The notes: a model not told the origin generated them from the sequence alone. DNA of 64,000 nt from a virus (IMGVR_UViG_3300028840_004184:32001-96000); one strand, 5' to 3'; positions 47,279 to 63,225 are shown, counted from the stretch's first letter. Program-made: numbers and translations.

Positions 47279-47620
47279 ATGTCACAGAATACAATGGATG
47301 ATTTCGATAAACTTTTTCCTGGCTTATCAGAAAAGATATTTGAGCAGTTTTACGGTGATGCTGATCATGGTATATTAATATGGAATAGAGAACAATTAGA
47401 CAGAGAAGGTTTCAACCATACGTTTTGTGCTGAAATAATATTACATGGGCAACATATTTATGTAAGCTGTCAAGACGGAAATTGGAATGGATCAGAGATA
47501 CTGGATTTTGAATGTTGTAAATTAGATAATCATCAAGAAAATATATGTCCATATTGTGGTGGACAAATAGAAACAATTATTGGAAACTTTAAAATATGTC
47601 AAAAGTGTGAGGATTGTTAA
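47279..47620 (+). CDS. hypothetical protein with C-terminal zinc ribbon
   Basis: CPYC...CQKC. Confidence 0.55.
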   Translation: MSQNTMDDFDKLFPGLSEKIFEQFYGDADHGILIWNREQLDREGFNHTFCAEIILHGQHIYVSCQDGNWNGSEILDFECCKLDNHQENICPYCGGQIETIIGNFKICQKCEDC

Positions 47621-47621
47621 T

Positions 47622-48902
47622 ATGAGAAATCTTGCTTCTATCCAGAAGATCAAAAGCCTTCAACCCATTGAAGGGGCTGATAAAATTGAAGTGGCTCGCG
47701 TTCTTGGTTGGGATGTTGTGGTAAAAAAGAATGAGTTTCAGCCTGGAGATCTCTGTGTCTATATTGAAATTGATTCTGTTCTACCATCGCGGGATGAGTT
47801 TAATTTTTTACTTAAGCTAACGGCTAAATGCTCTAATGACAATTGCCCAAATCGTTGGCAGGTTCCATATGATTTTAAGCTTATTGGTGGTCGTGTATAC
47901 TGCCCTAAGTGTGATAAGCTAAGCGAAGAGATCGAGGAGATTCCTGAAGTCAAGCAAGAAAAAATGAGACGTATTCGAACTATTAGGCTTCGCGGTCAGT
48001 TATCTCAGGGAATTGTTTTCCCATTGTCGATCTTGCCTAATAATGCCATGTGTTTTAAGAAAGATATGGTAGATACCGATGTTACTGAAGCCCTCGGTAT
48101 TAAGAAATATGAGCCCCCTATTGCTAGCGGCCCTGGTGGCCCCAATCGTAACAAGAGAACTAAGGGGAAGCGACCTATTTATGTACCACTGACTGACGAG
48201 ACCCGTGTACAGATCCTGGGTCCTGTTATCGAGAAATATCAAGGAACCGTGGGTTATATTAGTGAGAAACTGGACGGCTCTAGTTTCTCTGCTTCGCTCG
48301 TAGGAGGTAAGTACGAGGTATGTAGCCGGAATATGAATTTGGCAAAGCCCGGACTTCCTTGGTTACGCAGGTTATTGAATTGGTACTGGCAGTTGCGAAA
48401 CCGACAAGAAATGGTCCGTCATCCCGAAAGGGTAGACGCCTGGTGGTCTGTGGCCAATACTCTTGGTTTAAAAGAACGCATGCAAAAGTACTGTAAAAAT
48501 CATGGAATAAGAAATATTGTTTTACAGGCAGAATTAATAGGACCTAGAGTACAAGGAAACAAATACGCACTAGATGATTACGACCTTTACGTTTTTCAAA
48601 TTTATAATCCCGACACTGATAGTTATTTTAGTTTTATTGATTTTATTAATGCTGTTGAAGAAATGGGACTTAAAACTGTGCCAATTTTGAATGATAATTA
48701 TATTCTCGGTGGTGACAGTGATACTTTACTTCAGGTGGCGAAGGGCGATAGTGTATTAAACCCTAAAATTCCAAGGGAAGGCATAGTCTTCCGTCCATTA
48801 AAAGAAGTCTTGGTTACTTCTGGTATCGGTAGTAAGTTGCATCGAAGTAGATTAAGTTTTAAGGCAATCAATAATGATTTTCTACTAAGATATGGTGAAT
48901 AA
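47622..48902 (+). CDS. ATP-dependent RNA ligase (DRB0094/Rnl2-like)
   Basis: MR.LASI...IEGADKIE N-terminus, EKLDGSS motif I, REGIVF, SFKAIN. Confidence 0.92.
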   Translation: MRNLASIQKIKSLQPIEGADKIEVARVLGWDVVVKKNEFQPGDLCVYIEIDSVLPSRDEFNFLLKLTAKCSNDNCPNRWQVPYDFKLIGGRVYCPKCDKLSEEIEEIPEVKQEKMRRIRTIRLRGQLSQGIVFPLSILPNNAMCFKKDMVDTDVTEALGIKKYEPPIASGPGGPNRNKRTKGKRPIYVPLTDETRVQILGPVIEKYQGTVGYISEKLDGSSFSASLVGGKYEVCSRNMNLAKPGLPWLRRLLNWYWQLRNRQEMVRHPERVDAWWSVANTLGLKERMQKYCKNHGIRNIVLQAELIGPRVQGNKYALDDYDLYVFQIYNPDTDSYFSFIDFINAVEEMGLKTVPILNDNYILGGDSDTLLQVAKGDSVLNPKIPREGIVFRPLKEVLVTSGIGSKLHRSRLSFKAINNDFLLRYGE

Positions 48903-50106: not shown

Positions 50107-50179
50107 AGCGGGGAGGATGGGTATCCCGGCAGGGCTCATATCCCTGTTCTTGCAGGCTCGACTCCTGCCCCCGCTACCA
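50107..50179 (+). tRNA. tRNA-Met(CAT), initiator-like
   Basis: AGCGGGG/CCCCGCT acceptor, GGG/CCC anticodon stem, CTCATAT loop, encoded CCA; short D-arm. Confidence 0.8.
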
Positions 50180-50240
50180 TAAATATTTTCTCCTTAGGGA
50201 GTTGTGTTCTCTGCCTATGGCAGATAATCTAAAAAGGTTT

Positions 50241-50274
50241 CCGCTGAACCCGCCTGGCGAATCAGCGGTTTTTT
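50241..50274 (+). terminator. intrinsic terminator between the two CAT tRNAs
   Basis: CCGCTGA...TCAGCGG followed by T6. Confidence 0.6.
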
Positions 50275-50278
50275 ATTT

Positions 50279-50355
50279 GGACCCGTAGCTCAGTTGGTGA
50301 GAGCACTCGCCTCATAAGCGATAGGTCCTTGGTTCAAGTCCAAGCGGGTCCACCA
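50279..50355 (+). tRNA. tRNA(CAT), probably Ile2 (lysidine type) or elongator Met
   Basis: canonical cloverleaf, GGACCCG acceptor, CTCATAA loop, CCA. Confidence 0.9.
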
Positions 50356-50444
50356 CCTCAAACGGCAATAGCCTTAGTTTTACATTGGAGTATGAATTAA
50401 TGCATTTACCAGTTGGATAAGACTTATTAAGGACATAAAACATA

Positions 50445-50660
50445 ATGAGTGAAGAACTAATACGCAAGATAGAGGAAGAGTGGGATCAGCCGCAACCAAT
50501 GCAGTGCCCGGATTGTGGAAATTTTGTCATGGTTTCTCCAGAAGATTTGCTGGTACCAGTTGAGGATTTGTGTGAATGCTGCTTCAGATATAATGAAGAA
50601 TGTATCAGAGAACACGAAACTATGCACAGCGACCGACTATTCGACGATGATTTATGGTAA
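50445..50660 (+). CDS. small acidic zinc-finger protein
   Basis: CPDC...CECC; AAGGA RBS. Confidence 0.55.
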   Translation: MSEELIRKIEEEWDQPQPMQCPDCGNFVMVSPEDLLVPVEDLCECCFRYNEECIREHETMHSDRLFDDDLW

Positions 50661-50678
50661 TTTTTTCGAAAAAATAAC

Positions 50679-50707
50679 TTGACTTTTCGTAAGGTTTAGA
50701 GTATTAT
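50679..50707 (+). promoter_or_regulatory. sigma70-type promoter of tRNA array leader
   Basis: TTGACT-17-TATTAT with A-rich UP region. Confidence 0.7.
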
Positions 50708-50830
50708 ATATATACACGGGGTTATTCCCGATCTTACTATAGTTTGTGGGATTGTGACAGTTTGACTCAATTCCACTAAATAGTAGAACACGCATATAGC
50801 GTAGTTATTTCATAGGTTATGGAGAATAAA

Positions 50831-50911
50831 ATGTTTCTCGCAGAGCGACCATCTAGTTTGTCACATTTATGGACACCGGCATACGGCATCGAAGGAGCCG
50901 ATACGGGATAG
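50831..50911 (+). CDS. putative attenuator leader peptide MFLAERPSSLSHLWTPAYGIEGADTG
   Basis: GGAG RBS 6 nt upstream; stop codon directly adjoins antiterminator strand. Confidence 0.65.
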   Translation: MFLAERPSSLSHLWTPAYGIEGADTG

Positions 50912-50985
50912 CTGAGGGTCTGCTTATAACACATTTTTTAACACAATATACAGACCCTCAGGAGAAAAACTTCTGAGGGTTTTTT
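50912..50985 (+). terminator. mutually exclusive antiterminator (50912-50922 / 50951-50961) and terminator (50954-50980 + T-run)
   Basis: CTGAGGGTCTG/CAGACCCTCAG versus ACCCTCAGGAG/CTTCTGAGGGT-TTTTT. Confidence 0.85.
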
Positions 50986-51063
50986 AATGTTCAGTCGCCG
51001 AAGGGCTCACAAAAAAGTAGCTTTAAGATTAGCCGAATGGATTCAAGATATTTATAAATAAGT

Positions 51064-51137
51064 GCGTGGATGGTGTAGTGATAGCATCTGTGATTCCAAC
51101 TCATAGGGCCAGGGTTTGATTCCTTGTCTGCGTGCCA
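51064..51137 (+). tRNA. tRNA-Trp(CCA)
   Basis: cloverleaf, loop TTCCAAC, G73, CCA; G-U-rich acceptor. Confidence 0.8.
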
Positions 51138-51161
51138 ATTTTTATTGAGATATTTTATAAC

Positions 51162-51238
51162 GGGGGTGTAGTTCAGGTAGTTAGAACGCCAGCCTGTCAC
51201 GTTGGAGGTCGAGGGTGCGATGCCCTTCATCCCCGCCA
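51162..51238 (+). tRNA. tRNA-Asp(GTC)
   Basis: cloverleaf, CTGTCAC loop, G73, CCA. Confidence 0.92.
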
Positions 51239-51284
51239 CTTATTTCTTTGTTATGGAGGAATGAGCCTTAAATGAACGATATAT

Positions 51285-51359
51285 GGGCGAATAGTGTTAA
51301 CGGGAGCATACTAGATTTGCACTCTAGGGGTTGGGGTTCAACTCCCCATTTGTCCACCA
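51285..51359 (+). tRNA. tRNA-Ala(TGC)
   Basis: cloverleaf, G3:U70, CCA. Confidence 0.92.
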
Positions 51360-51446
51360 ACACTCAGTCGCCGTGGGGCTTTGATAAAAAATATTGCTCT
51401 TAGGCGAAAAAATAGATTGACAAATAAGAAAGATGTAGTATGATTA

Positions 51447-51522
51447 CTAGGGTTAACTCAGTTTGGTAGAGTACTGGCCTTGGACGCCAGGAGCGTAGGT
51501 TCAAATCCTACACCTTAGACCA
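51447..51522 (+). tRNA. tRNA-Pro(TGG)
   Basis: cloverleaf, C1:G72, CCA. Confidence 0.92.
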
Positions 51523-51527
51523 AAATT

Positions 51528-51640
51528 ATTCTTCCTTGCTGGGTCGTCTAATATGGTAGGACGCCAGTGACTCCTGTGGGGCGGAGCCTGCTCCGTAAAC
51601 TGGAAATGGTGGTTCGATTCCACCACCGTCATGGAGGAAT
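51528..51640 (+). ncRNA. tRNA-like RNA with expanded anticodon domain, no CCA
   Basis: D-arm GTCT-AATATGGTA-GGAC, CCAGT/ACTGG stem, T-arm GGTGG-TTCGATT-CCACC. Confidence 0.6.
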
Positions 51641-51677
51641 CTTTTAAGCTTAAGTTATATTGTATTGGATTTGTGTT

Positions 51678-52199
51678 ATGATATATTTAAGTGAAAAGCA
51701 ACGAAAAAACAAACGCATTATATTAGAGGAAATCAAACCTGTTGATTGTCAGGTGTGTTTTTTCCATGACGTATCTCATTTGCCGTTTAGTGGTTATCCT
51801 ATGCGTTCGAGTTATTATGATGAAATTAATAAGATAGCTTTCGTGTATACGGCTGAAGCGACCAACCGTCATATTTTGTATTCGTTACTACATGAGGTAT
51901 GTCATCACATTACATGGGACAAGAGATGGGATAGGCGTAAGTTTAGACGAGATGAATGGGGGGAGTGGAGACCTAGCCATCCTACATATTATTTGCGAGA
52001 ATATAAAGCAGAGAAGTTATTGCGAAAAATATGTAGACGATATGGATGGCATGAATTACTACAAGAGTCGGATATGTTATTAACAAAACATTTATTAAAT
52101 AAAACAAAAGATACTGAAAGACAATATACATATTCTTGTAAACGTATAGTAAGAGAAGAAAAACGAGACATAGCTCAGATGGTTAGAGCGTTCGGCTGA
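51678..52199 (+). CDS. HExxH metallopeptidase-like protein
   Basis: SLLHEVCHH...E..A; 3' end overlaps tRNA-Ile. Confidence 0.6.
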   Translation: MIYLSEKQRKNKRIILEEIKPVDCQVCFFHDVSHLPFSGYPMRSSYYDEINKIAFVYTAEATNRHILYSLLHEVCHHITWDKRWDRRKFRRDEWGEWRPSHPTYYLREYKAEKLLRKICRRYGWHELLQESDMLLTKHLLNKTKDTERQYTYSCKRIVREEKRDIAQMVRAFG

Positions 52200-52240
52200 T
52201 AACCGAAAGGGCGTAGGTTCAATTCCTACTGTCTCGACCA
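52164..52240 (+). tRNA. tRNA-Ile(GAT)
   Basis: canonical cloverleaf, CCA. Confidence 0.93.
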
Positions 52241-52275
52241 ACACTCAAGCGGCGTGGGCCTTATGGAGAAAATAG

Positions 52276-53055
52276 ATGATAAGAAAGTGTGATAAATGCG
52301 GATCTAACCTTGTTGAGTTGATTACATCGTGGGTTTGCCCTAACAGTTGCAACAAGGTGGACACCCCCTTGAAATCCCCCGGTGACTGGGGATCCGAAAT
52401 AGAACGTGACACCTTCTACCAGGACTTGCTTAAGGAGCAATGCAAAAACTGCGTCAACGAAGGAGATCATGATAATTGTTGTGGCAACGCTTGTGATGAA
52501 ATACCGTGTCCTGGATTTGAGAAAATGCCTGTAAAGAAGTCTATTACAGAACAGTCAATGATGCAACCAGTAGATATAACACAAAGCGGTTGTTTGAGTG
52601 GGCTAAAGAAGCCGCAGACAAAAATGTCATTAAAACAAGATCTCCATAAGCGGCAAGAAGATAAGTCCGCGTCGCTCTGTTCGATGGGTGTTTGGCGATG
52701 TGGATGTGGTAAGTTTCCTATACTCAAAAGCGAACCGGATGAAGAGGGAGATTTATTTTGGTTTTCATGTTGTGATATAGTTTCTTTTAATACGTCAGAT
52801 CTTAAATTGGCAGTTTTGCGATGGAATAATCTCCTTAAGCAGAAGGAGGGGTGGGAAAGACTAGGTGAAGTAGATCACATCGAAATAAACGATGGAAATA
52901 AAATTGTTATACATACTAAAAAGAACAATTTTCATATGAATGAGGATCAAATAATAAGTGATATGTCGGAAAAAGATTGTCCAAATAGTATAAAAAACAT
53001 ATTTCTTTATTATCAACAAAAGCATAATATATATAGATTTGAAATTATACCATGA
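52276..53055 (+). CDS. Cys-rich hypothetical protein with N-terminal zinc ribbon
   Basis: GGAG RBS; CDKC...LITSWVC. Confidence 0.6.
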   Translation: MIRKCDKCGSNLVELITSWVCPNSCNKVDTPLKSPGDWGSEIERDTFYQDLLKEQCKNCVNEGDHDNCCGNACDEIPCPGFEKMPVKKSITEQSMMQPVDITQSGCLSGLKKPQTKMSLKQDLHKRQEDKSASLCSMGVWRCGCGKFPILKSEPDEEGDLFWFSCCDIVSFNTSDLKLAVLRWNNLLKQKEGWERLGEVDHIEINDGNKIVIHTKKNNFHMNEDQIISDMSEKDCPNSIKNIFLYYQQKHNIYRFEIIP

Positions 53056-53141
53056 GTCGAACATATAAAGATACTAAAAGGCGTAGAGATGAAGCAGACG
53101 CACAGAAACAGATAAACGAATATAATCCCGAGCGGGAATAA

Positions 53142-53414
53142 TTGCTGCTTTGCAGCACTAAAATGTTAAATATTTACCGAGCGGTAATATCTAGTTGTTT
53201 TTATTATCATAAACACAAATGTATTATATGTGATGAGATTAATATAGTGGCCGTGCATCATTTTGATTTTAATAATAAAAATAATGAACCGGATAATTTA
53301 ATACCAATGTGCCCAACGCATCATCAATATATGCATAGTAGATTTAGGGAACTAATAGATAAAAAAGTTATTGAATATAGGCAGAGCTTCTTAAAGAAAT
53401 TTCGGAGCACATAA
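53142..53414 (+). CDS. HNH domain protein (possibly truncated)
   Basis: CIIC...VHHFD.N..NN...NL..MCPTHH. Confidence 0.65.
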   Translation: MLLCSTKMLNIYRAVISSCFYYHKHKCIICDEINIVAVHHFDFNNKNNEPDNLIPMCPTHHQYMHSRFRELIDKKVIEYRQSFLKKFRST

Positions 53415-53417
53415 AAA

Positions 53418-53639
53418 ATGGGAATGTATGATGAAATCAAGGTGCCTTGTCCTGAATGTGGTACAATTCATCTTGCCCAATCTAAGGGCGGCGATTGTAC
53501 ACTGGCACTTTATACGTTAAACGAAGCACCGACAGACGTATTACTTGATGTAAACAGACATGGTCCATTCCAATGTGAAAGGTGCTGTACAAGATTTGCT
53601 GTTAAAATACATTGTGTAGCTCAGGTTGTAAAAGAATAA
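53418..53639 (+). CDS. small zinc-ribbon protein
   Basis: MGMYD...CPECG...QSK. Confidence 0.6.
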   Translation: MGMYDEIKVPCPECGTIHLAQSKGGDCTLALYTLNEAPTDVLLDVNRHGPFQCERCCTRFAVKIHCVAQVVKE

Positions 53640-53656
53640 TTTGCGTAGCAATAGCA

Positions 53657-53730
53657 GGACATATCGTATAATGGTATTATGTGTGGCTTACATCCACAAG
53701 ACGGTGGTTCGATTCCATCTATGTCCACCA
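53657..53730 (+). tRNA. tRNA-Val(TAC)
   Basis: cloverleaf, CTTACAT loop, CCA. Confidence 0.88.
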
Positions 53731-53767
53731 ATGCTCAATCGCCGCAAGGCTTGTTAAGGATATTATT

Positions 53768-53944
53768 ATGAAAACAAAATTAAAAATTGTGATTGAATAT
53801 GAAGCAGATCCCGAGGATTATGATACCGAAGATCCAAAGAAAATGGCTGAAATTGATGAGAGTAATTTTAGAGAAGACCCACCATCTTTGATGGAAATGT
53901 TATGTGATTTAGAAGATATTAAAGTTAAAGTGGAGCCAGCATAG
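53768..53944 (+). CDS. small acidic hypothetical protein
   Basis: AAGGA RBS before ATG 53768. Confidence 0.5.
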   Translation: MKTKLKIVIEYEADPEDYDTEDPKKMAEIDESNFREDPPSLMEMLCDLEDIKVKVEPA

Positions 53945-53946
53945 TC

Positions 53947-54405
53947 ATGCAAACTTTTCTCCCGTACCGCGACTTTGAAAAATCGGCTAAATGTCTCGAT
54001 TATCGTCGGCTCGGTAAACAAAGAGTTGAGGCAAAACAGATCCTTAATGTTCTCCTGGGAAGGACAAATAAAAAGGGTTGGCGTAATCATCCATGCGTGA
54101 CAATGTGGCGTGATTATGAACTTGCTTTACAAGAATATTATAATATGATTCTGAAAGAATGGATAAGGCGTGGATATAAAAATAATATGGAATTTGAGTA
54201 TACTTCATATTATAAACATGGTATACTGAGGGTATATCAAGAACCATATACTAATCCTTATTATTGTAAGCCAGAATGGCTCAATAAGACATTCTGTGCC
54301 TCTCATCGTTCTAATCTGCTCCGTAAAGATCCTGAGTGGTATGGACGATTTGAGTGGGAAGAACCAAATAATTTACCGTACATTTGGCCCATTCAGTCAG
54401 CGTGA
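53947..54405 (+). CDS. pyrimidine-dimer DNA glycosylase-like protein (MSMEG_6728 family)
   Basis: MQTFLPY..F..SA..LD..RLGKQRVEA.QI, NHP...MW, SHRSNLLRKDP..Y. Confidence 0.85.
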   Translation: MQTFLPYRDFEKSAKCLDYRRLGKQRVEAKQILNVLLGRTNKKGWRNHPCVTMWRDYELALQEYYNMILKEWIRRGYKNNMEFEYTSYYKHGILRVYQEPYTNPYYCKPEWLNKTFCASHRSNLLRKDPEWYGRFEWEEPNNLPYIWPIQSA

Positions 54406-54430
54406 GCCTTTTTTGTTTATGGAGTAAAAT

Positions 54431-54625
54431 ATGATTGATCCCCAAATTAAAGAATGGATCGACGGTGCTAATATTGAAATGTTGTTGAGGAAATGGAGGT
54501 TCGCAAGGTCTGGTGATCCATATTTCCAAGGAGAAGCCGGAAAGTATTATTCTGAAGTTATGGCCAAGAAACGAAATGAAGACCCGGCGGCTTATACTCG
54601 GGCTAGCAAGAATATTGGATGGTAA
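54431..54625 (+). CDS. hypothetical protein
   Basis: GGAG RBS. Confidence 0.6.
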   Translation: MIDPQIKEWIDGANIEMLLRKWRFARSGDPYFQGEAGKYYSEVMAKKRNEDPAAYTRASKNIGW

Positions 54626-54649
54626 TAAGTTATTTTTGGAGACAATGAA

Positions 54650-55114
54650 ATGAAAACTACGGCTATAGTAACCCTGGCGATATTTATGTTCATAATAGGA
54701 TACGGAGCCTTACATTGTATTATGATAGAACGGGTGAAAGATAATGCAGTTGAAGACTATCGTAGATCGGCGGGTATGATAAGTTTTGATGATGAAGGTC
54801 CTAAGAAAACGGCATGTAAATGGGGCTGGGATATGGAGGCTGATCTTATCGAGACTCCTCATGGTAATCACAAGTTGATACTTAATGCAACTATTACCAA
54901 AGAACCCTGTGGAGAGCCCACGTTCACATTTTTTGTCTTTTTCTTTGGTTCTGATAATCAGATACTAGGGACTAGGAAAATTGTACGTCCTTGTGATAGT
55001 CCTGTGCAGTTATGGATTCCACGAAACACAGCGTATATACTAGTTTGCGGTGAGGGTAAATGTGGTAAATGCGGAAGCGAAGTGTTGAATGCGGCATTGT
55101 TGGAAATAGAATAA
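54650..55114 (+). CDS. membrane-anchored beta-rich protein
   Basis: N-terminal TM, Cys pairs. Confidence 0.55.
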   Translation: MKTTAIVTLAIFMFIIGYGALHCIMIERVKDNAVEDYRRSAGMISFDDEGPKKTACKWGWDMEADLIETPHGNHKLILNATITKEPCGEPTFTFFVFFFGSDNQILGTRKIVRPCDSPVQLWIPRNTAYILVCGEGKCGKCGSEVLNAALLEIE

Positions 55115-55120
55115 TCAAGA

Positions 55121-55197
55121 GTTGACCATGGTGTAGATAGTTAACATATCGGATTGTGACTCCGGGGTCAGCGGGGCGGAACCGCTTGGTCAACCCA
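55121..55197 (+). tRNA. tRNA-His(GTG)
   Basis: G-1:C73, TTGTGAC loop, CCA; aberrant T-loop GGCGGAA. Confidence 0.88.
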
Positions 55198-55236
55198 CAT
55201 AACTTCGTTATGAAGAAAGTCGTAGTTTAAAAATTG

Positions 55237-55329
55237 GGAGGGTTGTCGGAGCGGTCAATCGAGGCGGATTTGAAATCCGTTGGTCAGTTTAAAGCTGGCA
55301 CGGGGGTTCGAATCCCTCACCCTCCTCCA
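55237..55329 (+). tRNA. tRNA-Ser(TGA)
   Basis: long variable arm, TTTGAAA loop, CCA. Confidence 0.92.
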
Positions 55330-55342
55330 AACTTTAAATAAA

Positions 55343-55433
55343 AGTCCATGGCGAAGTGGCAGACGTGTTATTTCATGGTGGGCGTCGGGAGCCGTTAACC
55401 GATAGCTGTTGGTTCGAATCCAGCCCATGGACT
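55343..55433 (+). ncRNA. tRNA-like RNA with expanded anticodon domain, no CCA
   Basis: AGTCCATGG/CCATGGACT closing stem, D-loop-like AAGTGGCAGA, T-arm GTTGG-TTCGAAT-CCAGC. Confidence 0.6.
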
Positions 55434-55456
55434 GTTTTTAAAATGGATAACTTCCC

Positions 55457-55756
55457 ATGGATGATAAAATAAAAATACTAAGATGGTGGAATAAAAATGA
55501 AGCCGAAGTAATAAAAGAATACCATATTGCTGTACGGGTTACAAGAACTAAATCTGGTAAACGACATAGGTATGATGTATGTGCTCAAGACGATGATCCG
55601 AACTTAGCGGGGTGGAATTTTATTAGTATATATCTTCCTCACGATCAGGATGAAGAGGCGAAAAAGAAAGCTATTGAAAAAATTAAAGGCATGGTTCGGT
55701 GTGGTTCTCCTGACATACATATGATAAGAAATGATATCGAGGAACATAAATCATGA
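55457..55756 (+). CDS. hypothetical protein
   Basis: 99-aa ORF between RNA genes. Confidence 0.5.
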   Translation: MDDKIKILRWWNKNEAEVIKEYHIAVRVTRTKSGKRHRYDVCAQDDDPNLAGWNFISIYLPHDQDEEAKKKAIEKIKGMVRCGSPDIHMIRNDIEEHKS

Positions 55757-55962
55757 AACCCAGCAAAAAATCTGAAGGTATTGAGGATTTCCTAGATCGT
55801 TTTGGCGAAGTCGCATACGGAAGAGGCCGTATAGAATCAATTGAAAATGATATCTGTATAAAATGTGGTCAACCAGCCAAAGTTTTTCGCGACGATCTTT
55901 CCCGTAGGGAATATACGATTTCTGGTCTTTGCCAAAAGTGTCAGGATAAGATATTTAAGTAG
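55753..55962 (+). CDS. small zinc-finger protein
   Basis: CIKC...EY.ISGLCQKCQD..F. Confidence 0.65.
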   Translation: MKPSKKSEGIEDFLDRFGEVAYGRGRIESIENDICIKCGQPAKVFRDDLSRREYTISGLCQKCQDKIFK

Positions 55963-56048
55963 GGGTGGCGGAATAATAGACGCAGCCCGATTATGGGTGG
56001 CTATTTTGATCAAATAGTGTGTAGGTGTGAATCCTACCCTCTACACCA
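55959..56048 (+). tRNA. aberrant Leu-like tRNA with truncated anticodon arm
   Basis: GTAGGGG/CCTCTAC acceptor, A73-CCA, long variable arm; anticodon arm only GCCC-GATTAT-GGGT. Confidence 0.6.
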
Positions 56049-56082
56049 AAACTTAGACGCCGTTAGGCTTTGAAATAGAGAC

Positions 56083-56167
56083 GGGCGGGTACCCAAGCGG
56101 CAAAGGGGTGTGGCTGTAGACCACATGGCTAACGCCTACGTTGGTTCGAGTCCAACTCCGCCCACCA
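56083..56167 (+). tRNA. tRNA-Tyr(GTA)
   Basis: cloverleaf with variable arm, CCA. Confidence 0.93.
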
Positions 56168-56180
56168 ACATAACTTCGTT

Positions 56181-56390
56181 ATGGAGAAAGAAAAAATGCG
56201 ACTAAGTGAGTTGATTAATGTATTACTAGAAGTACAGAGAGATTGTAAAAATGATCCCGATTATCCTGATGATCCCCCCGTAGAGATTTGTCAAGCAATT
56301 AGTACAAATATAGGATCGGTAGAGAGATCAAGATATTATAATCACAGGACGGACGGAAAAGATCCAATTGTTATGATACATGAAGCATGA
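56181..56390 (+). CDS. hypothetical protein
   Basis: small ORF; true start may be the second ATG after GGAG. Confidence 0.5.
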   Translation: MEKEKMRLSELINVLLEVQRDCKNDPDYPDDPPVEICQAISTNIGSVERSRYYNHRTDGKDPIVMIHEA

Positions 56391-56407
56391 AGGTCGATAA
56401 ACATAGT

Positions 56408-56493
56408 GGCTCCGTGGGGGAAATTAGCAGACCCGTATCGCTTAAGACGATATGCCCTAGGGCGTTCCAGTGCAAGTCTGGACGGAGCTACCA
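56408..56493 (+). tRNA. tRNA-Leu(TAA)
   Basis: CTTAAGA loop, variable arm, CCA. Confidence 0.9.
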
Positions 56494-56534
56494 AAACATA
56501 AATACCGCTACAGACTTTTGCGGAGCATATACTA

Positions 56535-57155
56535 ATGGGAATGTCACGATCAGAAGCTGGTAAGCTTGGTGCTAAGAAAGTTAATCCGGCACAAAGACAA
56601 AGAGCGATAAACAAATACTACAAAAGTCCATCTATTTGTAAATATTGTGGTAAAGTTATACGAATCAAAAATAAGGAAAAAGCATCTTATGTTAAAAGAA
56701 AGAAATTTTGTAATAGATCATGTTTAATGAGATACATAAACGCGTTACATGTTCGGCAAAGCGATAAACGAAATTGTTTACAATGCGACAAGGTAATACC
56801 AGCGAGACAGAAATACTGCTCTTTGAAATGTCAGCAATTATATAAAAAAATAAAAAGATTCAACGATATAGACGAAAGACAAGATGCTGATGGGTATGGT
56901 AATAAAACTATTAAGTCATATTTGTTATATAAATATGGTTATAAATGCTCTATATGTAATAATACTGTGTGGATGGACAAACAAATCCCCTTAGTTATGG
57001 ACCACGTAGATGGTAATCCATACAATAATAAGATCAATAACTTAAGGCTGGTCTGTGGTAACTGTGATATGCAGTTACCAACGTATAAGTCAAAAAATAG
57101 AGGAAGTGGTCGTCATTATAGACGACTAAGATATAAACAAGACAAAAGCTATTAG
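56535..57155 (+). CDS. HNH homing endonuclease
   Basis: KFCN..C zinc motifs, CSIC...DHVDGN..NN...NL.LVC.NC. Confidence 0.85.
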   Translation: MGMSRSEAGKLGAKKVNPAQRQRAINKYYKSPSICKYCGKVIRIKNKEKASYVKRKKFCNRSCLMRYINALHVRQSDKRNCLQCDKVIPARQKYCSLKCQQLYKKIKRFNDIDERQDADGYGNKTIKSYLLYKYGYKCSICNNTVWMDKQIPLVMDHVDGNPYNNKINNLRLVCGNCDMQLPTYKSKNRGSGRHYRRLRYKQDKSY

Positions 57156-57228
57156 CCTGCATAGTTTAATGGTAAAACCTCGGTTTTGTAATCCGAATTT
57201 CGGCGTTCGATTCGTCGTGCAGGCTCCA
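57155..57228 (+). tRNA. tRNA-Thr(TGT)
   Basis: cloverleaf, CCA. Confidence 0.9.
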
Positions 57229-57258
57229 TGTATTTTTCTTTGTTATGGAGGTGTTAAA

Positions 57259-57465
57259 ATGGTTAACTTCAGTAACGTAAGGGATGTCGGCAGAATTCTT
57301 GCTCTTAGAGAGAGAGCATACCGCAGGTCTAATCGTGAAAAATCATTACAGCCTCGTCATAGCAAACATTGGTGTCCGTCTTGTGACGGAGCTATAATTG
57401 GTGCTGGTAGCAAATGTCCTAGATGTGGAAAGCGTATTTCGCCGAGACGGCTGAAAAAGGAATAA
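57259..57465 (+). CDS. small zinc-ribbon protein
   Basis: GGAGG RBS; WCPSCD...KCPRCG. Confidence 0.6.
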   Translation: MVNFSNVRDVGRILALRERAYRRSNREKSLQPRHSKHWCPSCDGAIIGAGSKCPRCGKRISPRRLKKE

Positions 57466-57488
57466 TGCTACGCAGGCTAAAATTTTAC

Positions 57489-57579
57489 GGAAGGGTGGCC
57501 GAGTTGGCTTATGGCACCGTCCTGCTAAGGCGGAGGGGTATAATAGCCCCCGCAAGTTCGAATCTTGTCCCTTCCTCCA
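57489..57579 (+). tRNA. tRNA-Ser(GCT)
   Basis: long variable arm, CTGCTAA loop, CCA. Confidence 0.92.
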
Positions 57580-57608
57580 TGCTCAATCGCCGCAAGGCTT
57601 ACAGTTGA

Positions 57609-57790
57609 TCTTTGAATATTTATAAGCAAGAGGACTAGGGGCGAGAATCCGTATAATTCAATTCTTAGCCAGGACGTTCGGAGCATGTAAAATGCAGCAC
57701 CGCCTAGTATGAGTTTGCGGATACATATACAGCAACTCTGGTGATAGTTGCTCTGTGAAATCTAACAGAAAAGGCCGTAATATTCAAAGA
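57609..57790 (+). ncRNA. unclassified ~180-nt pseudoknotted structured RNA
   Basis: 12-bp closing stem TCTTTGAATATT/AATATTCAAAGA plus five internal helices and a long pseudoknot; no ORF. Confidence 0.6.
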
Positions 57791-57822
57791 CTTGATTAAT
57801 TTTAACTAAGGAGCAATTTATC

Positions 57823-58209
57823 ATGTTTAACTTTCTAATTTATCTGTTGATTACATTTAGTTCTTTTATAATGCAAGATCCTGGGCCTGGTCCGCAGGTT
57901 TGTGTACTGGAGGGGTGTATTGATCTTGTCACTGTTGATTATGGTGATGGACTATACGGCCTTGAAGTCTATTCAAGGGGTAGTTCCAGCTTGAATCACG
58001 GGGTCTCTATGGAGATTTATTGGTATGTTTTTGACATGTTCGGGAAACTTGTGGGGCTTGGTCGTGATCTTATTCCGTATTGGTATGACGAGAGAGAATT
58101 AATCCCTTTGGTGGCTGGTCAACACGTATATATCGAACTAAGAGTGATTTGTTGGAAATGTAAGATCGATACGTGGGCTTATGCGGATACTAAGATACCT
58201 CCATTTTAA
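57823..58209 (+). CDS. exported beta-rich protein
   Basis: AAGGAG RBS, signal-like N-terminus. Confidence 0.55.
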   Translation: MFNFLIYLLITFSSFIMQDPGPGPQVCVLEGCIDLVTVDYGDGLYGLEVYSRGSSSLNHGVSMEIYWYVFDMFGKLVGLGRDLIPYWYDERELIPLVAGQHVYIELRVICWKCKIDTWAYADTKIPPF

Positions 58210-58274
58210 ACTCAGGTGGCGTTGGCCTTATATTGTATTGTTTTAAAGGCACAAAAAATTGTGCGTAGCACAAT

Positions 58275-58361
58275 GGCATCCTGGCGAAATGGCAGACGCG
58301 GTAGGTTCAAAACCTGCTACCACGTAGTGGTGTCCCGGTTCAAGTCCGGGGGGTGCCACCA
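58275..58361 (+). tRNA. tRNA-Leu(CAA)
   Basis: TTCAAAA loop, variable arm, CCA. Confidence 0.92.
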
Positions 58362-58399
58362 TATTCAGTTGCCGCAGGGCTTAGAAAAGGAAAGATAAC

Positions 58400-58555
58400 A
58401 TGAGTGAAGATGAAATAGTCGAATGTCCCGAGTGTGGTTTTCAGCAGCTAGATCCTGGTAAAGGAGTTGCTTGTGAAGAATGCGGACATTATCCCCTTGT
58501 TTCTCTTAAGGAGATCGAGAAGCAGGACAAAGAGTGGAGAAAAGGCAATGGCTAG
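58400..58555 (+). CDS. small zinc-ribbon protein (below ORF-track cutoff)
   Basis: MSEDEIVECPECG...CEECG; AAGGA RBS. Confidence 0.55.
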   Translation: MSEDEIVECPECGFQQLDPGKGVACEECGHYPLVSLKEIEKQDKEWRKGNG

Positions 58556-58745
58556 ATGTAATTATTGCAATTTTGTAAGTATTAGAGAAGAGCATAAGAA
58601 TAGTGATAAGACGGTGACTTTAACACCAGACAATCACGTATATGTACACCCTAAAGAGATTATTATTGCTGATTTGTCAAAGGAGGAAAGGGAAAAATAC
58701 TTTGTGGCCTGGTTTATGGAGTTGCCTAATTATTGTTGTTGCTAA
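58548..58745 (+). CDS. hypothetical protein
   Basis: GGAG RBS before ATG 58548. Confidence 0.55.
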   Translation: MARCNYCNFVSIREEHKNSDKTVTLTPDNHVYVHPKEIIIADLSKEEREKYFVAWFMELPNYCCC

Positions 58746-58746
58746 A

Positions 58747-58823
58747 GCGGGTGTAGTTTAGTCGAATAGAACACCTCGCTACGAACGAGGAGGTCGGGGG
58801 TTTAAGTCCTCCCACCCGCACCA
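58747..58823 (+). tRNA. tRNA-Arg(ACG)
   Basis: cloverleaf, A20, CCA. Confidence 0.9.
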
Positions 58824-58832
58824 TTGAAGCTC

Positions 58833-58930
58833 GATAAGAGATTGTCAGAGCCCGTTGTACAGGCTTGATTCGGTGGACGTGGTGACCGAATGACTATGAT
58901 ACAAGGAAGCAACCTTGCAGTTATCTTATC
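58833..58930 (+). ncRNA. unclassified ~100-nt four-way-junction RNA
   Basis: GATAAGAGATTG/CAGTTATCTTATC closing stem with three hairpins. Confidence 0.5.
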
Positions 58931-58951
58931 CATACAGCATTATTTTTATGT

Positions 58952-59036
58952 GGGAGAGTGGCGTAACTGGTAGCCGCGTATGGTTTAGGACCATATGTCG
59001 AAAGGCGTGCAGGTTCGAGTCCTGTCTCTCCTACCA
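58952..59036 (+). tRNA. tRNA-Leu(TAG)
   Basis: TTTAGGA loop, variable arm, CCA. Confidence 0.92.
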
Positions 59037-59078
59037 ACACTCATGCTTCGCTGGCGTGGGCCTTATTAGGGGTATATT

Positions 59079-59300
59079 ATGACCAGGAAAGAATTTAGTG
59101 AAGTGCTTCGTGATTTATCTCCCGTTGTTTACGATGGTATGTTGGCTGGGGGTATGTCGCTGCCTAAAATAGCACAGGCTGTTGCCCTGGACTGTTTTTT
59201 ATATAGGTCGGGAGAAGTAGACAGTATTATGCAGAGAACACTGCGTGGGTATTTACAAAACCTAGATAAGACTGGCGTCTTTGGATTTGATAAAGAATAG
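59079..59300 (+). CDS. hypothetical protein
   Basis: AGGGG RBS, fills gap between tRNAs. Confidence 0.55.
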   Translation: MTRKEFSEVLRDLSPVVYDGMLAGGMSLPKIAQAVALDCFLYRSGEVDSIMQRTLRGYLQNLDKTGVFGFDKE

Positions 59301-59301
59301 A

Positions 59302-59375
59302 GAGGCTATGGTGTAGTGGTAACACGTCAGGTTTTCAGCCTGAGGTCGAGAGTTCGATTCTCTCTAGCCTTACCA
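59302..59375 (+). tRNA. tRNA-Glu(TTC)
   Basis: cloverleaf, TTTTCAG loop, CCA. Confidence 0.9.
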
Positions 59376-59396
59376 ACTTAAGAAGAATATGATATA

Positions 59397-60011
59397 ATGA
59401 GAATTCCTGATATTTTGATAAAAGATCTTAATAGCCTAAGTCCAGGCAATCGTGTTTTGAGATTAAGGGGATTGTCGTCATATTATCGAAACCCAAGATA
59501 TTGTTTGTTTTGTAACAAAGTTATTAATGCTGTACCTGGAGTACGTCTTGCACGCACAAAGGCAAAAAAGTTTTGTAACCAAAGATGTGCTGCATTATAC
59601 AATAATAAGCGTAAGCTGTCTAATGAGTGTTTGTATTGTGGTAAATCAATATATAAGTATCGTAAATACTGTTCTCATAAGTGTGTTCAAGAGCATAAAT
59701 ATAGAACATATATCGGTAAATGGCTTAGCGGTAAAGTAAGTGGTATAAAAGGCAAGGACAGCATATCTAATTATATCAGACGTTGGTTAATTGATAAATA
59801 TAACAATCGATGCGTTAAGTGTGGATGGAGTGTAAAAAATAGATATACGAATAAAGTCCCTCTACAAATTAATCACATCGATGGTAATTGGAAAAACAAC
59901 AAGTCCGAGAATTTAGAGCTTGTATGTCCTAATTGTCATTCATTAACACCTAATTATGGTGGTAGAAATAAAGGAAAAGGACGACCATATAGGTATAAAA
60001 TGCGAGTATAA
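59397..60011 (+). CDS. HNH homing endonuclease (paralogue of 56535)
   Basis: CVKCGW...LQINHIDGN..NN..ENL.LVCPNCHS. Confidence 0.88.
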   Translation: MRIPDILIKDLNSLSPGNRVLRLRGLSSYYRNPRYCLFCNKVINAVPGVRLARTKAKKFCNQRCAALYNNKRKLSNECLYCGKSIYKYRKYCSHKCVQEHKYRTYIGKWLSGKVSGIKGKDSISNYIRRWLIDKYNNRCVKCGWSVKNRYTNKVPLQINHIDGNWKNNKSENLELVCPNCHSLTPNYGGRNKGKGRPYRYKMRV

Positions 60012-60075
60012 TTCAATGGTAGAAAGTCACCCTTCCAAGGTGGATATGCCGGTTCGAATCCGGCTACTCGCTCCA
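60002..60075 (+). tRNA. tRNA-Gly(TCC)
   Basis: GCG acceptor start, U73, CCA. Confidence 0.92.
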
Positions 60076-62730: not shown

Positions 62731-63210
62731 ATGAATAATATGTGTCCTAAATGTGGTGGTGTTATGGAGCTAGGTTTTAACCAATACACTTGTTATCAGT
62801 GCGGAAAAGAACCGGTATATAACGAATATAATTTCGATGTAGGTTATAACCGTGATTTTAAAATTGGCGATAGGTGGTGTAATATTTTTAAGTCTGGTGG
62901 TACAAAGTATTTTAGAATAGCCACTAGCATTACAGTAGATGCTTCTACTTGCAACTGGTTTCCTTTGTGTCCAGATGAATTGAAGATATTTCTTTATACT
63001 ATTAAGTCTCCTTATAAAAATCATTTGCTTTCAGGCACGCAACACGCATTGTCAGGAAAGCATTTTGATATCACAATATATAACAGAGACCAATTAGTTA
63101 TAAAGGGTTCTACAACATCTGAGCAGATGGAAATCATTTTTAGTAAAAAAGATGCGGAAAAACTTGTATCTCTTGTGAAACAAGTGAAAAAATTATTTGA
63201 CTCTTGTTGA
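62731..63210 (+). CDS. hypothetical protein with N-terminal zinc ribbon
   Basis: CPKCGG.M...CYQCG. Confidence 0.55.
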   Translation: MNNMCPKCGGVMELGFNQYTCYQCGKEPVYNEYNFDVGYNRDFKIGDRWCNIFKSGGTKYFRIATSITVDASTCNWFPLCPDELKIFLYTIKSPYKNHLLSGTQHALSGKHFDITIYNRDQLVIKGSTTSEQMEIIFSKKDAEKLVSLVKQVKKLFDSC

Positions 63211-63225
63211 AAAATAAGCTATACT
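63197..63225 (+). promoter_or_regulatory. sigma70-type promoter
   Basis: TTGACT-17-TATACT. Confidence 0.65.

Follow-up and report, generated by a model that had tools for sequence, protein, structure and literature searches.

A putative leader-peptide attenuator with tRNA-matched codons at the entrance of a phage tRNA array

Results

Organization of the Leader

The DNA analyzed here is a 64,000-nucleotide stretch (the window; positions are counted from its first base) that corresponds to bases 32001–96000 of a 170,410-bp uncultivated phage genome in IMG/VR (IMGVR_UViG_3300028840_004184). At positions 50679–50985, at the entrance of the main tRNA gene array, the plus strand carries a promoter, a short open reading frame (ORF) and an intrinsic terminator. 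The 5′ arm of the terminator has an alternative partner, a strand that begins right behind the stop codon. We consider the core of this arrangement likely to be a ribosome-mediated (leader-peptide) attenuator, because all of the classical parts are present in the right order. The explanation that best accounts for the whole locus, an attenuator at the head of the array with codons matched to the tRNAs encoded behind it, is held more tentatively and falls a little short of probable.

A first-pass annotation had proposed such an attenuator and read it as a census of tRNAs. When the sequence was re-read, the promoter, GGAG, ORF, 11-bp antiterminator pairing and terminator with T-run were all found where it had placed them. 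The features of the leader, all on the plus strand, are as follows:

50666–50707, sigma-70-type promoter with upstream A-tract (−35 TTGACT at 50679–84, 17-nt spacer, −10 TATTAT at 50702–07; 10/12 match)
50714–50830, structured 5′ untranslated leader of ~117 nt with predicted hairpins, counted from a presumed transcription start
50821–50824, Shine-Dalgarno GGAG, 6 nt upstream of the ATG at 50831
50831–50911, leader ORF of 26 sense codons plus TAG, 24 of them distinct, without a run of any codon
50843–50858, segment 1, within the ORF (codons 5–10), predicted to pair with segment 2 at the minimum free energy of the naked RNA
50876–50906, imperfect hairpin (predicted pairs) in the final third of the ORF
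50912–50922, segment 2, the antiterminator 5′ strand, beginning at the base after the stop codon
50923–50950, A/U-rich antiterminator loop of 28 nt, in which two TAACACA copies flank a T6 run
50951–50961, segment 3, with segment 2 (antiterminator) or segment 4 (terminator) as alternative partner
50952–50985, intrinsic terminator (13-pair stem at 50952–82, 5-nt loop, T6 run), 80 nt upstream of tRNA-Trp

The promoter and ribosome-binding site both resemble those used elsewhere in the genome. The leader promoter is a member of a genome-wide family defined by TTGAC[AT] with an A-rich block upstream. About 30 plus-strand sigma-70-type promoters of the form TTGAC[AT]-16/18-TAnnnT were seen, many with an A-rich UP-like block (e.g., 50666–50707, 51404–51444 and 63185–63225). 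GGAG precedes 40/122 long ORFs of the phage, spacings of 6–7 nt are among the most frequent (range 5–11), and a 14-nt block around the leader GGAG is repeated before other starts in the genome; the Shine-Dalgarno motif and 6-nt spacing of the leader are thus typical for genes of this phage. The start was taken as 50831 because an alternative in-frame ATG at 50819 has a poor ribosome-binding site (only AGG, 3 nt upstream). The encoded peptide has no obvious features. By folding, RNA covering 50800–50990 is more structured than its shuffles (z-score −4.2).

Codon Match between the Leader and the tRNA Array

The 25 elongation codons of the ORF were compared with the codon boxes of the 17 tRNAs encoded downstream. 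Twenty-four fall in served boxes, with TTT the sole unserved codon, and 20/25 are strictly decodable. Seen from the array, 16/17 tRNAs are covered at box level and 15/17 by a strictly cognate codon. A recount returned the same values that the first-pass annotation had given, including 24 distinct codons among 26 and Val as the missing amino acid. A run or enrichment of one regulating codon, as in a classical attenuator, was looked for in the ORF and not found; what the leader has instead is a match to the array at about one codon each. The nulls gave the following values:

Genome codon usage: served boxes, P 0.0019; box-level coverage, P 6e-4; joint P 1.5e-5
Stop-free mononucleotide shuffles of the leader: joint P 9e-5
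Stop-free dinucleotide shuffles of the leader: served boxes, P 0.02; coverage, P 0.004; joint P 5.6e-4

Strict coverage under genome codon usage had a P of 1e-4. The codon match is statistically unusual under every null tried, and the permutation check that the first-pass annotation had proposed came out in its favor, with coverage beyond chance under both genome codon usage and dinucleotide shuffles. The leader therefore draws its codons from the boxes of the tRNAs behind its terminator beyond what composition gives (joint P 5.6e-4 to 1.5e-5). The match is confined to the ORF frame; scores in the five remaining frames of this stretch are far lower. Among 113,065 stop-free 25-codon windows taken from all six frames of the genome, the leader ranked top on every measure; one further locus passed both thresholds and lies antisense to tRNA-Leu.

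Synonymous choice points the same way. Resampling of synonymous codons from genome usage, with the peptide held fixed, gave an expectation of 14.9 decodable codons, whereas the leader has 20 (P 0.011); for Watson-Crick-cognate codons the expectation was 8.4 and the leader has 13 (P 0.028). The share of A-ending codons is 40% in the leader vs. 25% in the genome, an excess that fits the many U34 tRNAs. No enrichment was seen for the first three tRNAs alone (Trp, Asp and Ala), which account for 5/25 codons vs. ~14% expected by hand count.

The codons that the leader avoids (Lys, Asn, Gln and AGR) are, with the exception of TTT, those served by a second tRNA cluster. The first-pass annotation was right that these codons are absent from the leader, but tRNAs for them do exist elsewhere in the genome. 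The second cluster (Arg-TCT, Asn, Lys, Phe and Gln) occupies genome positions 146130–147041. As it lies on the minus strand and ~55 kb away, the Lys, Asn and Gln tRNAs are outside the transcription unit of the array, in agreement with the first-pass annotation.

Competing Structures and Predicted Switching

Segments 2 and 3 (50912–22 and 50951–61) show perfect 11-bp complementarity. Terminators were located genome-wide as a hairpin plus T-run, giving ~11 compact, strong, GC-rich sites in the 170-kb genome; the stem at 50952–82 is the top terminator-like site within 47–64 kb. The 5′ arm of each of the 11 terminators was then scanned over the 110 nt upstream. The 2:3 duplex has an energy of −22.5 kcal/mol vs. 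a null mean of −9.3, and an upstream competitor was found only at the leader terminator (0/10 of the other clean terminators, the next best at −12.1 kcal/mol). The competing 2:3 pairing is non-random.

Taken singly, the 2:3 antiterminator and the 3:4 terminator hairpins have energies of −20.5 and −19.8 kcal/mol, and the global folds, when forced, reach −43.0 kcal/mol for the antiterminator and −46.4 kcal/mol for the terminator. Such near-equal modeled energies are the balance expected for a switch. In naked RNA, 99% of the ensemble is in the terminator form, because 50843–58, inside the ORF, pairs with 50910–25. When growing transcripts were folded, this 1:2 pairing was the first to form. The imperfect hairpin at 50876–50906 is a possible pause element in the predicted fold, and the TAACACA copies and T6 run in the antiterminator loop could be a binding or pause site.

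The ribosome was modeled as a blocked 28-nt footprint with equilibrium folding of the remaining RNA. A footprint with its A site at the stop codon gave 100% terminator and 0% antiterminator. With the A site at codons 3–9, 90–99% of the ensemble was antiterminator; at codon 12 this was 41%, and from codon 15 onward the RNA was mostly in the terminator form. Folding with a masked ribosome, a check that the first-pass annotation had called for, thus bears out that masking at the stop favors the terminator, whereas the antiterminator follows only from stalls at about codons 3–12 and not at every codon. The real sensing window may be wider than this, as the equilibrium model leaves out that a bound ribosome would sterically hinder pairing across it.

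The leader did not match known RNA families. The Rfam His_leader model (RF00514) scored 26.9 bits, below its gathering threshold of 49; the opposite strand scored 17.9 bits, and the leader-strand score is due largely to the terminator. For the T-box, no Rfam match to the leader appeared even at E up to 10.

Transcription of the tRNA Array

The following features lie behind the leader terminator, all on the plus strand:

50990–51009, mini-hairpin belonging to a repeated motif, ahead of tRNA-Trp
51064–51522, tRNA-Trp, Asp, Ala and Pro, the first genes behind the terminator (ARAGORN, Rfam)
51417–51444, internal promoter P51417, TTGACA-16-TATGAT (11/12 match), with the same upstream A-tract
52164–60075, rest of the array, 13 tRNAs interspersed with small ORFs (ARAGORN)

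P51417 has an upstream block almost identical to that of the leader promoter and belongs to the same family. The last base of its −10 element is 51444 and the first of tRNA-Pro 51447, leaving 2 nt between them, so that a normal start would fall inside the tRNA-Pro acceptor stem; tRNA-Pro is probably not made from this promoter. No sigma-70-like consensus site was found on the plus strand between 50708 and 51417. A T4-type late promoter before tRNA-Trp was considered and is unlikely, because TATAAATA, found just before that gene, shows no genome-wide enrichment (rank 20 of 56 permutations). With no promoter found between the terminator and these genes, tRNA-Trp, Asp, Ala and probably Pro seem to need terminator read-through. 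This need argues for a terminator that is leaky or regulated instead of a plain insulator. The first-pass annotation had put the whole array under the terminator; that view holds for tRNA-Trp, Asp, Ala and probably Pro, whereas the remaining tRNAs could be transcribed from P51417 without read-through. No strong plus-strand terminator was found between 50985 and ~61.3 kb, so read-through could extend far into the array.

A sigma-70 region-2 domain is encoded in a 206-aa ORF (genome 148619–148795, plus strand), and the phage probably redirects host RNA polymerase to its own promoters. A search for a T7-like RNA polymerase gave no match, but the control search was also without a match, which makes this result uninformative.

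The mini-hairpin motif is 20 nt long and consists of CTCA[AG]T followed by a 3–4-bp GCC/GGC mini-hairpin with a 4-nt loop. Its copies, nearly always on the plus strand, lie at 50990, 51363, 53734, 56052, 57582, 58364 and 60081 in the window and at 97.7, 102.3, 108.4, 114.1 and 122.5 kb of the genome. They are placed right behind tRNA 3′ ends and 12–20 nt upstream of the ribosome-binding sites of protein genes. A role as a processing site or phage-specific signal is possible for the motif.

Similar Cassettes in Phage phiCbK

The codon statistic, fixed beforehand, was applied unchanged to the Caulobacter phage phiCbK (NC_019405), in which the depositors annotated rho-independent terminators directly upstream of tRNA blocks. 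Results for the small ORFs (sORFs) and the competitors of the terminator 5′ arm were as follows:

Before Pro, Pro, Lys, Lys, Leu x3, Ala, Ser x2: 31/44 sORF residues match (P<1e-5) and 10/10 tRNAs are covered (P 0.007); competitor, P 0.05
Before Phe, Val, Ile, Ile, Val, Gln, Gln: 9/12 consecutive codons are Phe/Val/Ile/Gln (scan P 3.4e-4); in-ORF competitor of −34.4 kcal/mol, 0/500 in the null
Before Glu, Asp: no sORF match, no competitor
Before a protein gene: no competitor

The two matching cassettes are found at 49.5–49.8 kb and 51.3–51.5 kb of the record, each with promoter, sORF and terminator; we found no published description of them. Judged by these patterns, a class of tRNA-matched cassettes looks real in at least one cultured phage, which raises the prior for the present locus. 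Both phages place a promoter, an sORF and a terminator before a tRNA block, and share the composition match and the competitor of the terminator 5′ arm, although they are unrelated in sequence and lineage. The small blocks of phiCbK are each preceded by a separate leader, matching codons are repeated, and the competitor strand is inside the ORF. Here, a single leader of single codons stands before a 17-tRNA array, and the competitor comes just past the stop codon.

Comparison with Known Leaders and tRNA Regions

In trp/his-type attenuation, the antiterminator strand is covered once the ribosome has reached the stop codon and is left free if the ribosome stalls earlier. The leader studied here shares with amino-acid operon leaders (trpL, hisL, leuL and pheL) a promoter, a short ORF and a terminator 5′ arm with an upstream alternative partner. 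In the equilibrium model, it also has the masking geometry and an antiterminator that excludes the terminator. The multivalent thrL and ilvL leaders sense more than one amino acid, as is proposed here. Unlike these systems, the present ORF has no regulatory codon run, using 24 different codons about once each; the genes behind its terminator encode tRNAs and not biosynthetic enzymes; it is found in a phage; and its 1:2 protector is statistically unsupported. The below-threshold His_leader score likewise gives it no membership in that sequence family.

T-box riboswitches are a functional analogy, as their leader RNA senses tRNA status and switches a terminator/antiterminator of translation-related genes. 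They do so by directly binding one uncharged tRNA through Stem I and the T-box bulge, without a ribosome, whereas the antiterminator here is a plain perfect stem. The erm/cat leaders and the antibiotic-responsive leaders known from Term-seq regulate resistance genes, and their signal is a drug-bound ribosome on a specific peptide motif. Like the switch proposed here, leaders of the erm/cat type have a stalled ribosome on a short ORF that remodels the downstream RNA, and their sensing is not specific to an amino acid. The tRNA region of phage T5 (AY543070) is a comparable mosaic of tRNA genes, small ORFs and HNH endonucleases with several sigma-70 promoters. Its annotation holds no sORF-terminator cassette before tRNA blocks; it lists seven non-tRNA stable or tRNA-like RNAs without assigned function and one putative tRNA-like RNA.

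Genome Setting and Relatives

The phage genome has direct terminal repeats, a completeness estimate of complete and ~39% GC. ARAGORN identified 24 tRNA genes in it. The window contains 19 of them on the plus strand, spanning 50107–60075 (17 downstream of the leader and two tRNA-Met genes upstream), and together with the second cluster they serve all amino acids except Cys. One tRNA-Met call, at 50107–50179, has an oddly positioned anticodon according to ARAGORN; the Rfam tRNA model was silent there and a weak tRNA-Sec match of 25 bits was obtained. It may be an aberrant or initiator-like tRNA.

Several small Cys-rich ORFs are close to the leader. An RNA ligase gene (47580–48902; Pfam RNA_ligase and a PHA02142 OB-fold domain) adjoins the array 2 kb upstream of the leader, and a tRNA-repair function is plausible for it. 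Its relatives among GenBank phages and IMG/VR, from Aeromonas and Pseudomonas phages, have ≤38% identity and are not syntenic. Inside the tRNA array, at 53947–54405, lies a gene for a pyrimidine-dimer DNA glycosylase (Pfam Pyr_excise, E 3e-27).

The gene immediately upstream of the second tRNA cluster encodes a peptide deformylase (Pfam PF01327, E 9e-39). Upstream of both is another structured leader (genome 147499–147809, minus strand; z −5.4) with a TTGACT-16-TATAAT promoter and a 38-codon ORF that runs through three GC-rich hairpins, without a T-run terminator. This sORF is not enriched for codons of its own cluster (9/37, counted by hand, vs. 22.6% expected). We rejected the idea that the two leaders are paralogues, as they share the 14-nt Shine-Dalgarno block alone.

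Searches for relatives of the locus were made at several levels. The leader had no DNA match in GenBank phages, and the first tRNAs returned generic tRNA similarity only from the same set. The neighboring 71-aa and 179-aa proteins had only self-matches in a set of 5.8 billion proteins, and a scan with the 71-aa protein found nothing. IMG/VR pattern scans with the tRNA-Trp 3′ half and with the mini-hairpin motif gave 0 matches. In JGI metagenomes, a scan for the 2:3 hairpin matched 15 palindromic repeats, all of them unrelated.

Discussion

Why phages carry tRNA genes is a long-standing question, and to our knowledge hardly anything has been established about how such genes are controlled. In full-text literature searches, whose incomplete coverage leaves novelty unproven, we found no description of leader-peptide attenuation of phage tRNA genes. 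Phage tRNAs have been tied to escape from host tRNA-cleaving defences (PMC10264068, PMC11464382, PMC11555353).

The proposed mechanism runs as follows. Transcripts from the leader promoter (P50679) and from the upstream operon would both carry the 26-codon ORF. A ribosome that reaches the TAG would cover 50912–22, leaving segment 3 to pair with segment 4 in the terminator, and transcription would stop 80 nt before tRNA-Trp. A ribosome stalled earlier in the ORF would instead allow 50912–22 to pair with 50951–61 and block the terminator, and RNA polymerase would continue into tRNA-Trp, Asp, Ala and Pro and onward into the terminator-free array. Slow decoding of any of many codons would thereby lead to more phage tRNA, many-codon sensing being suggested by an ORF of 24 different codons taken nearly all from array-served boxes. 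Translation of the ORF, the switching itself and its trigger, whether starvation or a tRNA-cleaving host defence, are all predicted from the sequence. In its most developed form, which we regard as rather doubtful, this is a feedback census in which the leader reads ~10–16 tRNAs with about one codon each, and a shortage of any of them opens transcription of the replacement tRNAs. Host anticodon nucleases or other tRNA-depleting defences could be the trigger of such a census.

Several observations weigh against this reading. P51417 can supply everything from ~51450, so that at least 13/17 of the sampled tRNAs may not depend on the switch, and the first tRNAs could have a separate source of transcription in promoters for the phage sigma factor or in the mini-hairpin at 50990. 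Equilibrium folding predicts read-through solely for stalls at about codons 3–12, not at all 25. The 1:2 pairing would make termination the default, though its energy is within the random range (P 0.3–0.4); for that reason we do not count it as evolved. Of the interpretation given in the first-pass annotation, the anatomy and the unusual codon match stand. Classical leaders (trp, his and leu) use runs of regulatory codons, and single codons would give weak sensitivity. The codon statistic was devised after the ORF had been seen and is thus post hoc. A Val codon is missing from the leader, and its TTT belongs to the second tRNA cluster. A start at 50819 would add Glu, Asn, Lys and Met codons, and exclusivity would fall to 25/29 (P 0.04); under uniform synonymous usage the synonymous bias is at ~P 0.05 by hand calculation. 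All codons that the leader avoids are A/T-rich, and the GC content of the leader, 52%, exceeds the 39% of the genome. Finally, searches of GenBank phages, IMG/VR, JGI metagenomes and the set of 5.8 billion proteins yielded no homologue of the locus, so frame conservation and helix covariation cannot support the leader reading. Functional tRNA-matched sensing is held as a tentative proposal, somewhat on the doubtful side, because it comes from a single sequence with a post hoc statistic, an internal promoter and a limited predicted sensing window.

Base composition enters into another account, in which the attenuator reports translation status in general, responding to any slowing or absence of ribosomes (host shut-off, stress or antibiotics), and the codon match is an incidental product of a GC-balanced, structured stretch in which A/T-rich codons for Lys, Asn, Phe and Gln are avoided. 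It shares all of the structural evidence given above, agrees with the lack of a run of any codon and with the avoidance of exactly the A/T-rich codons, and can point to exclusivity alone reaching only P 0.02 under dinucleotide shuffles. We nevertheless consider it unlikely, since 16/17 coverage is still unusual with composition controlled (P 0.004; joint 5.6e-4), the other frames lack the match, synonymous choice leans to codons that the phage tRNAs can decode, and the phiCbK cassettes match in a block-specific way. The locus could also be a stand-alone small unit running from P50679 to the terminator, which would yield a stable RNA of ~270 nt or a 26-residue peptide and insulate the upstream operon from the array; the 2:3 pairing would then be the RNA's own fold or a duplication remnant, and the first tRNAs would come from an unrecognized phage promoter. 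The unit does have its own promoter and a strong terminator, its RNA is more structured than shuffles and, when naked, 99% in the terminator form, a sigma-family gene is present in the phage, and the similar mosaic of T5 is annotated with stable RNAs. Yet the mutually exclusive 11-bp competitor is unique among the genome's terminators, and its first base directly follows the stop codon of an ORF whose Shine-Dalgarno site is good, an arrangement that a plain small RNA does not need. The RNA also matches no Rfam family (His_leader at 26.9 vs. 49 bits), the peptide is without obvious features, and no promoter was found for tRNA-Trp, Asp, Ala and Pro. We hold this account to be improbable to a similar degree.

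Antitermination by a dedicated factor is very unlikely. Here a phage or host protein, or a small RNA, would bind the 28-nt A/U-rich loop and stabilize or block the 2:3 pairing, with the sORF irrelevant. The two direct TAACACA repeats in the loop, the several small Cys-rich ORFs nearby and the non-significant 1:2 pairing fit this idea, but no evidence for such a factor was seen, the shortness of the repeats and their A/T-rich context speak against it, and both the abutment of stop codon and competitor and the codon statistics are left unexplained.

If the ribosome-mediated attenuator with array-matched codons is true, the supply of phage tRNAs would be under demand-driven control through the sensing of decoding speed. 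As an uncultivated phage without relatives, this phage offers a weaker experimental entry point than phiCbK; what its locus adds is the design in an unrelated, mid-GC lineage. Together with the phiCbK-type cassettes, it would represent a new class in which ribosome-mediated attenuation acts on tRNA genes themselves. The logic of trp/his attenuation would then extend from amino-acid genes to tRNA genes, with many single codons replacing one run.

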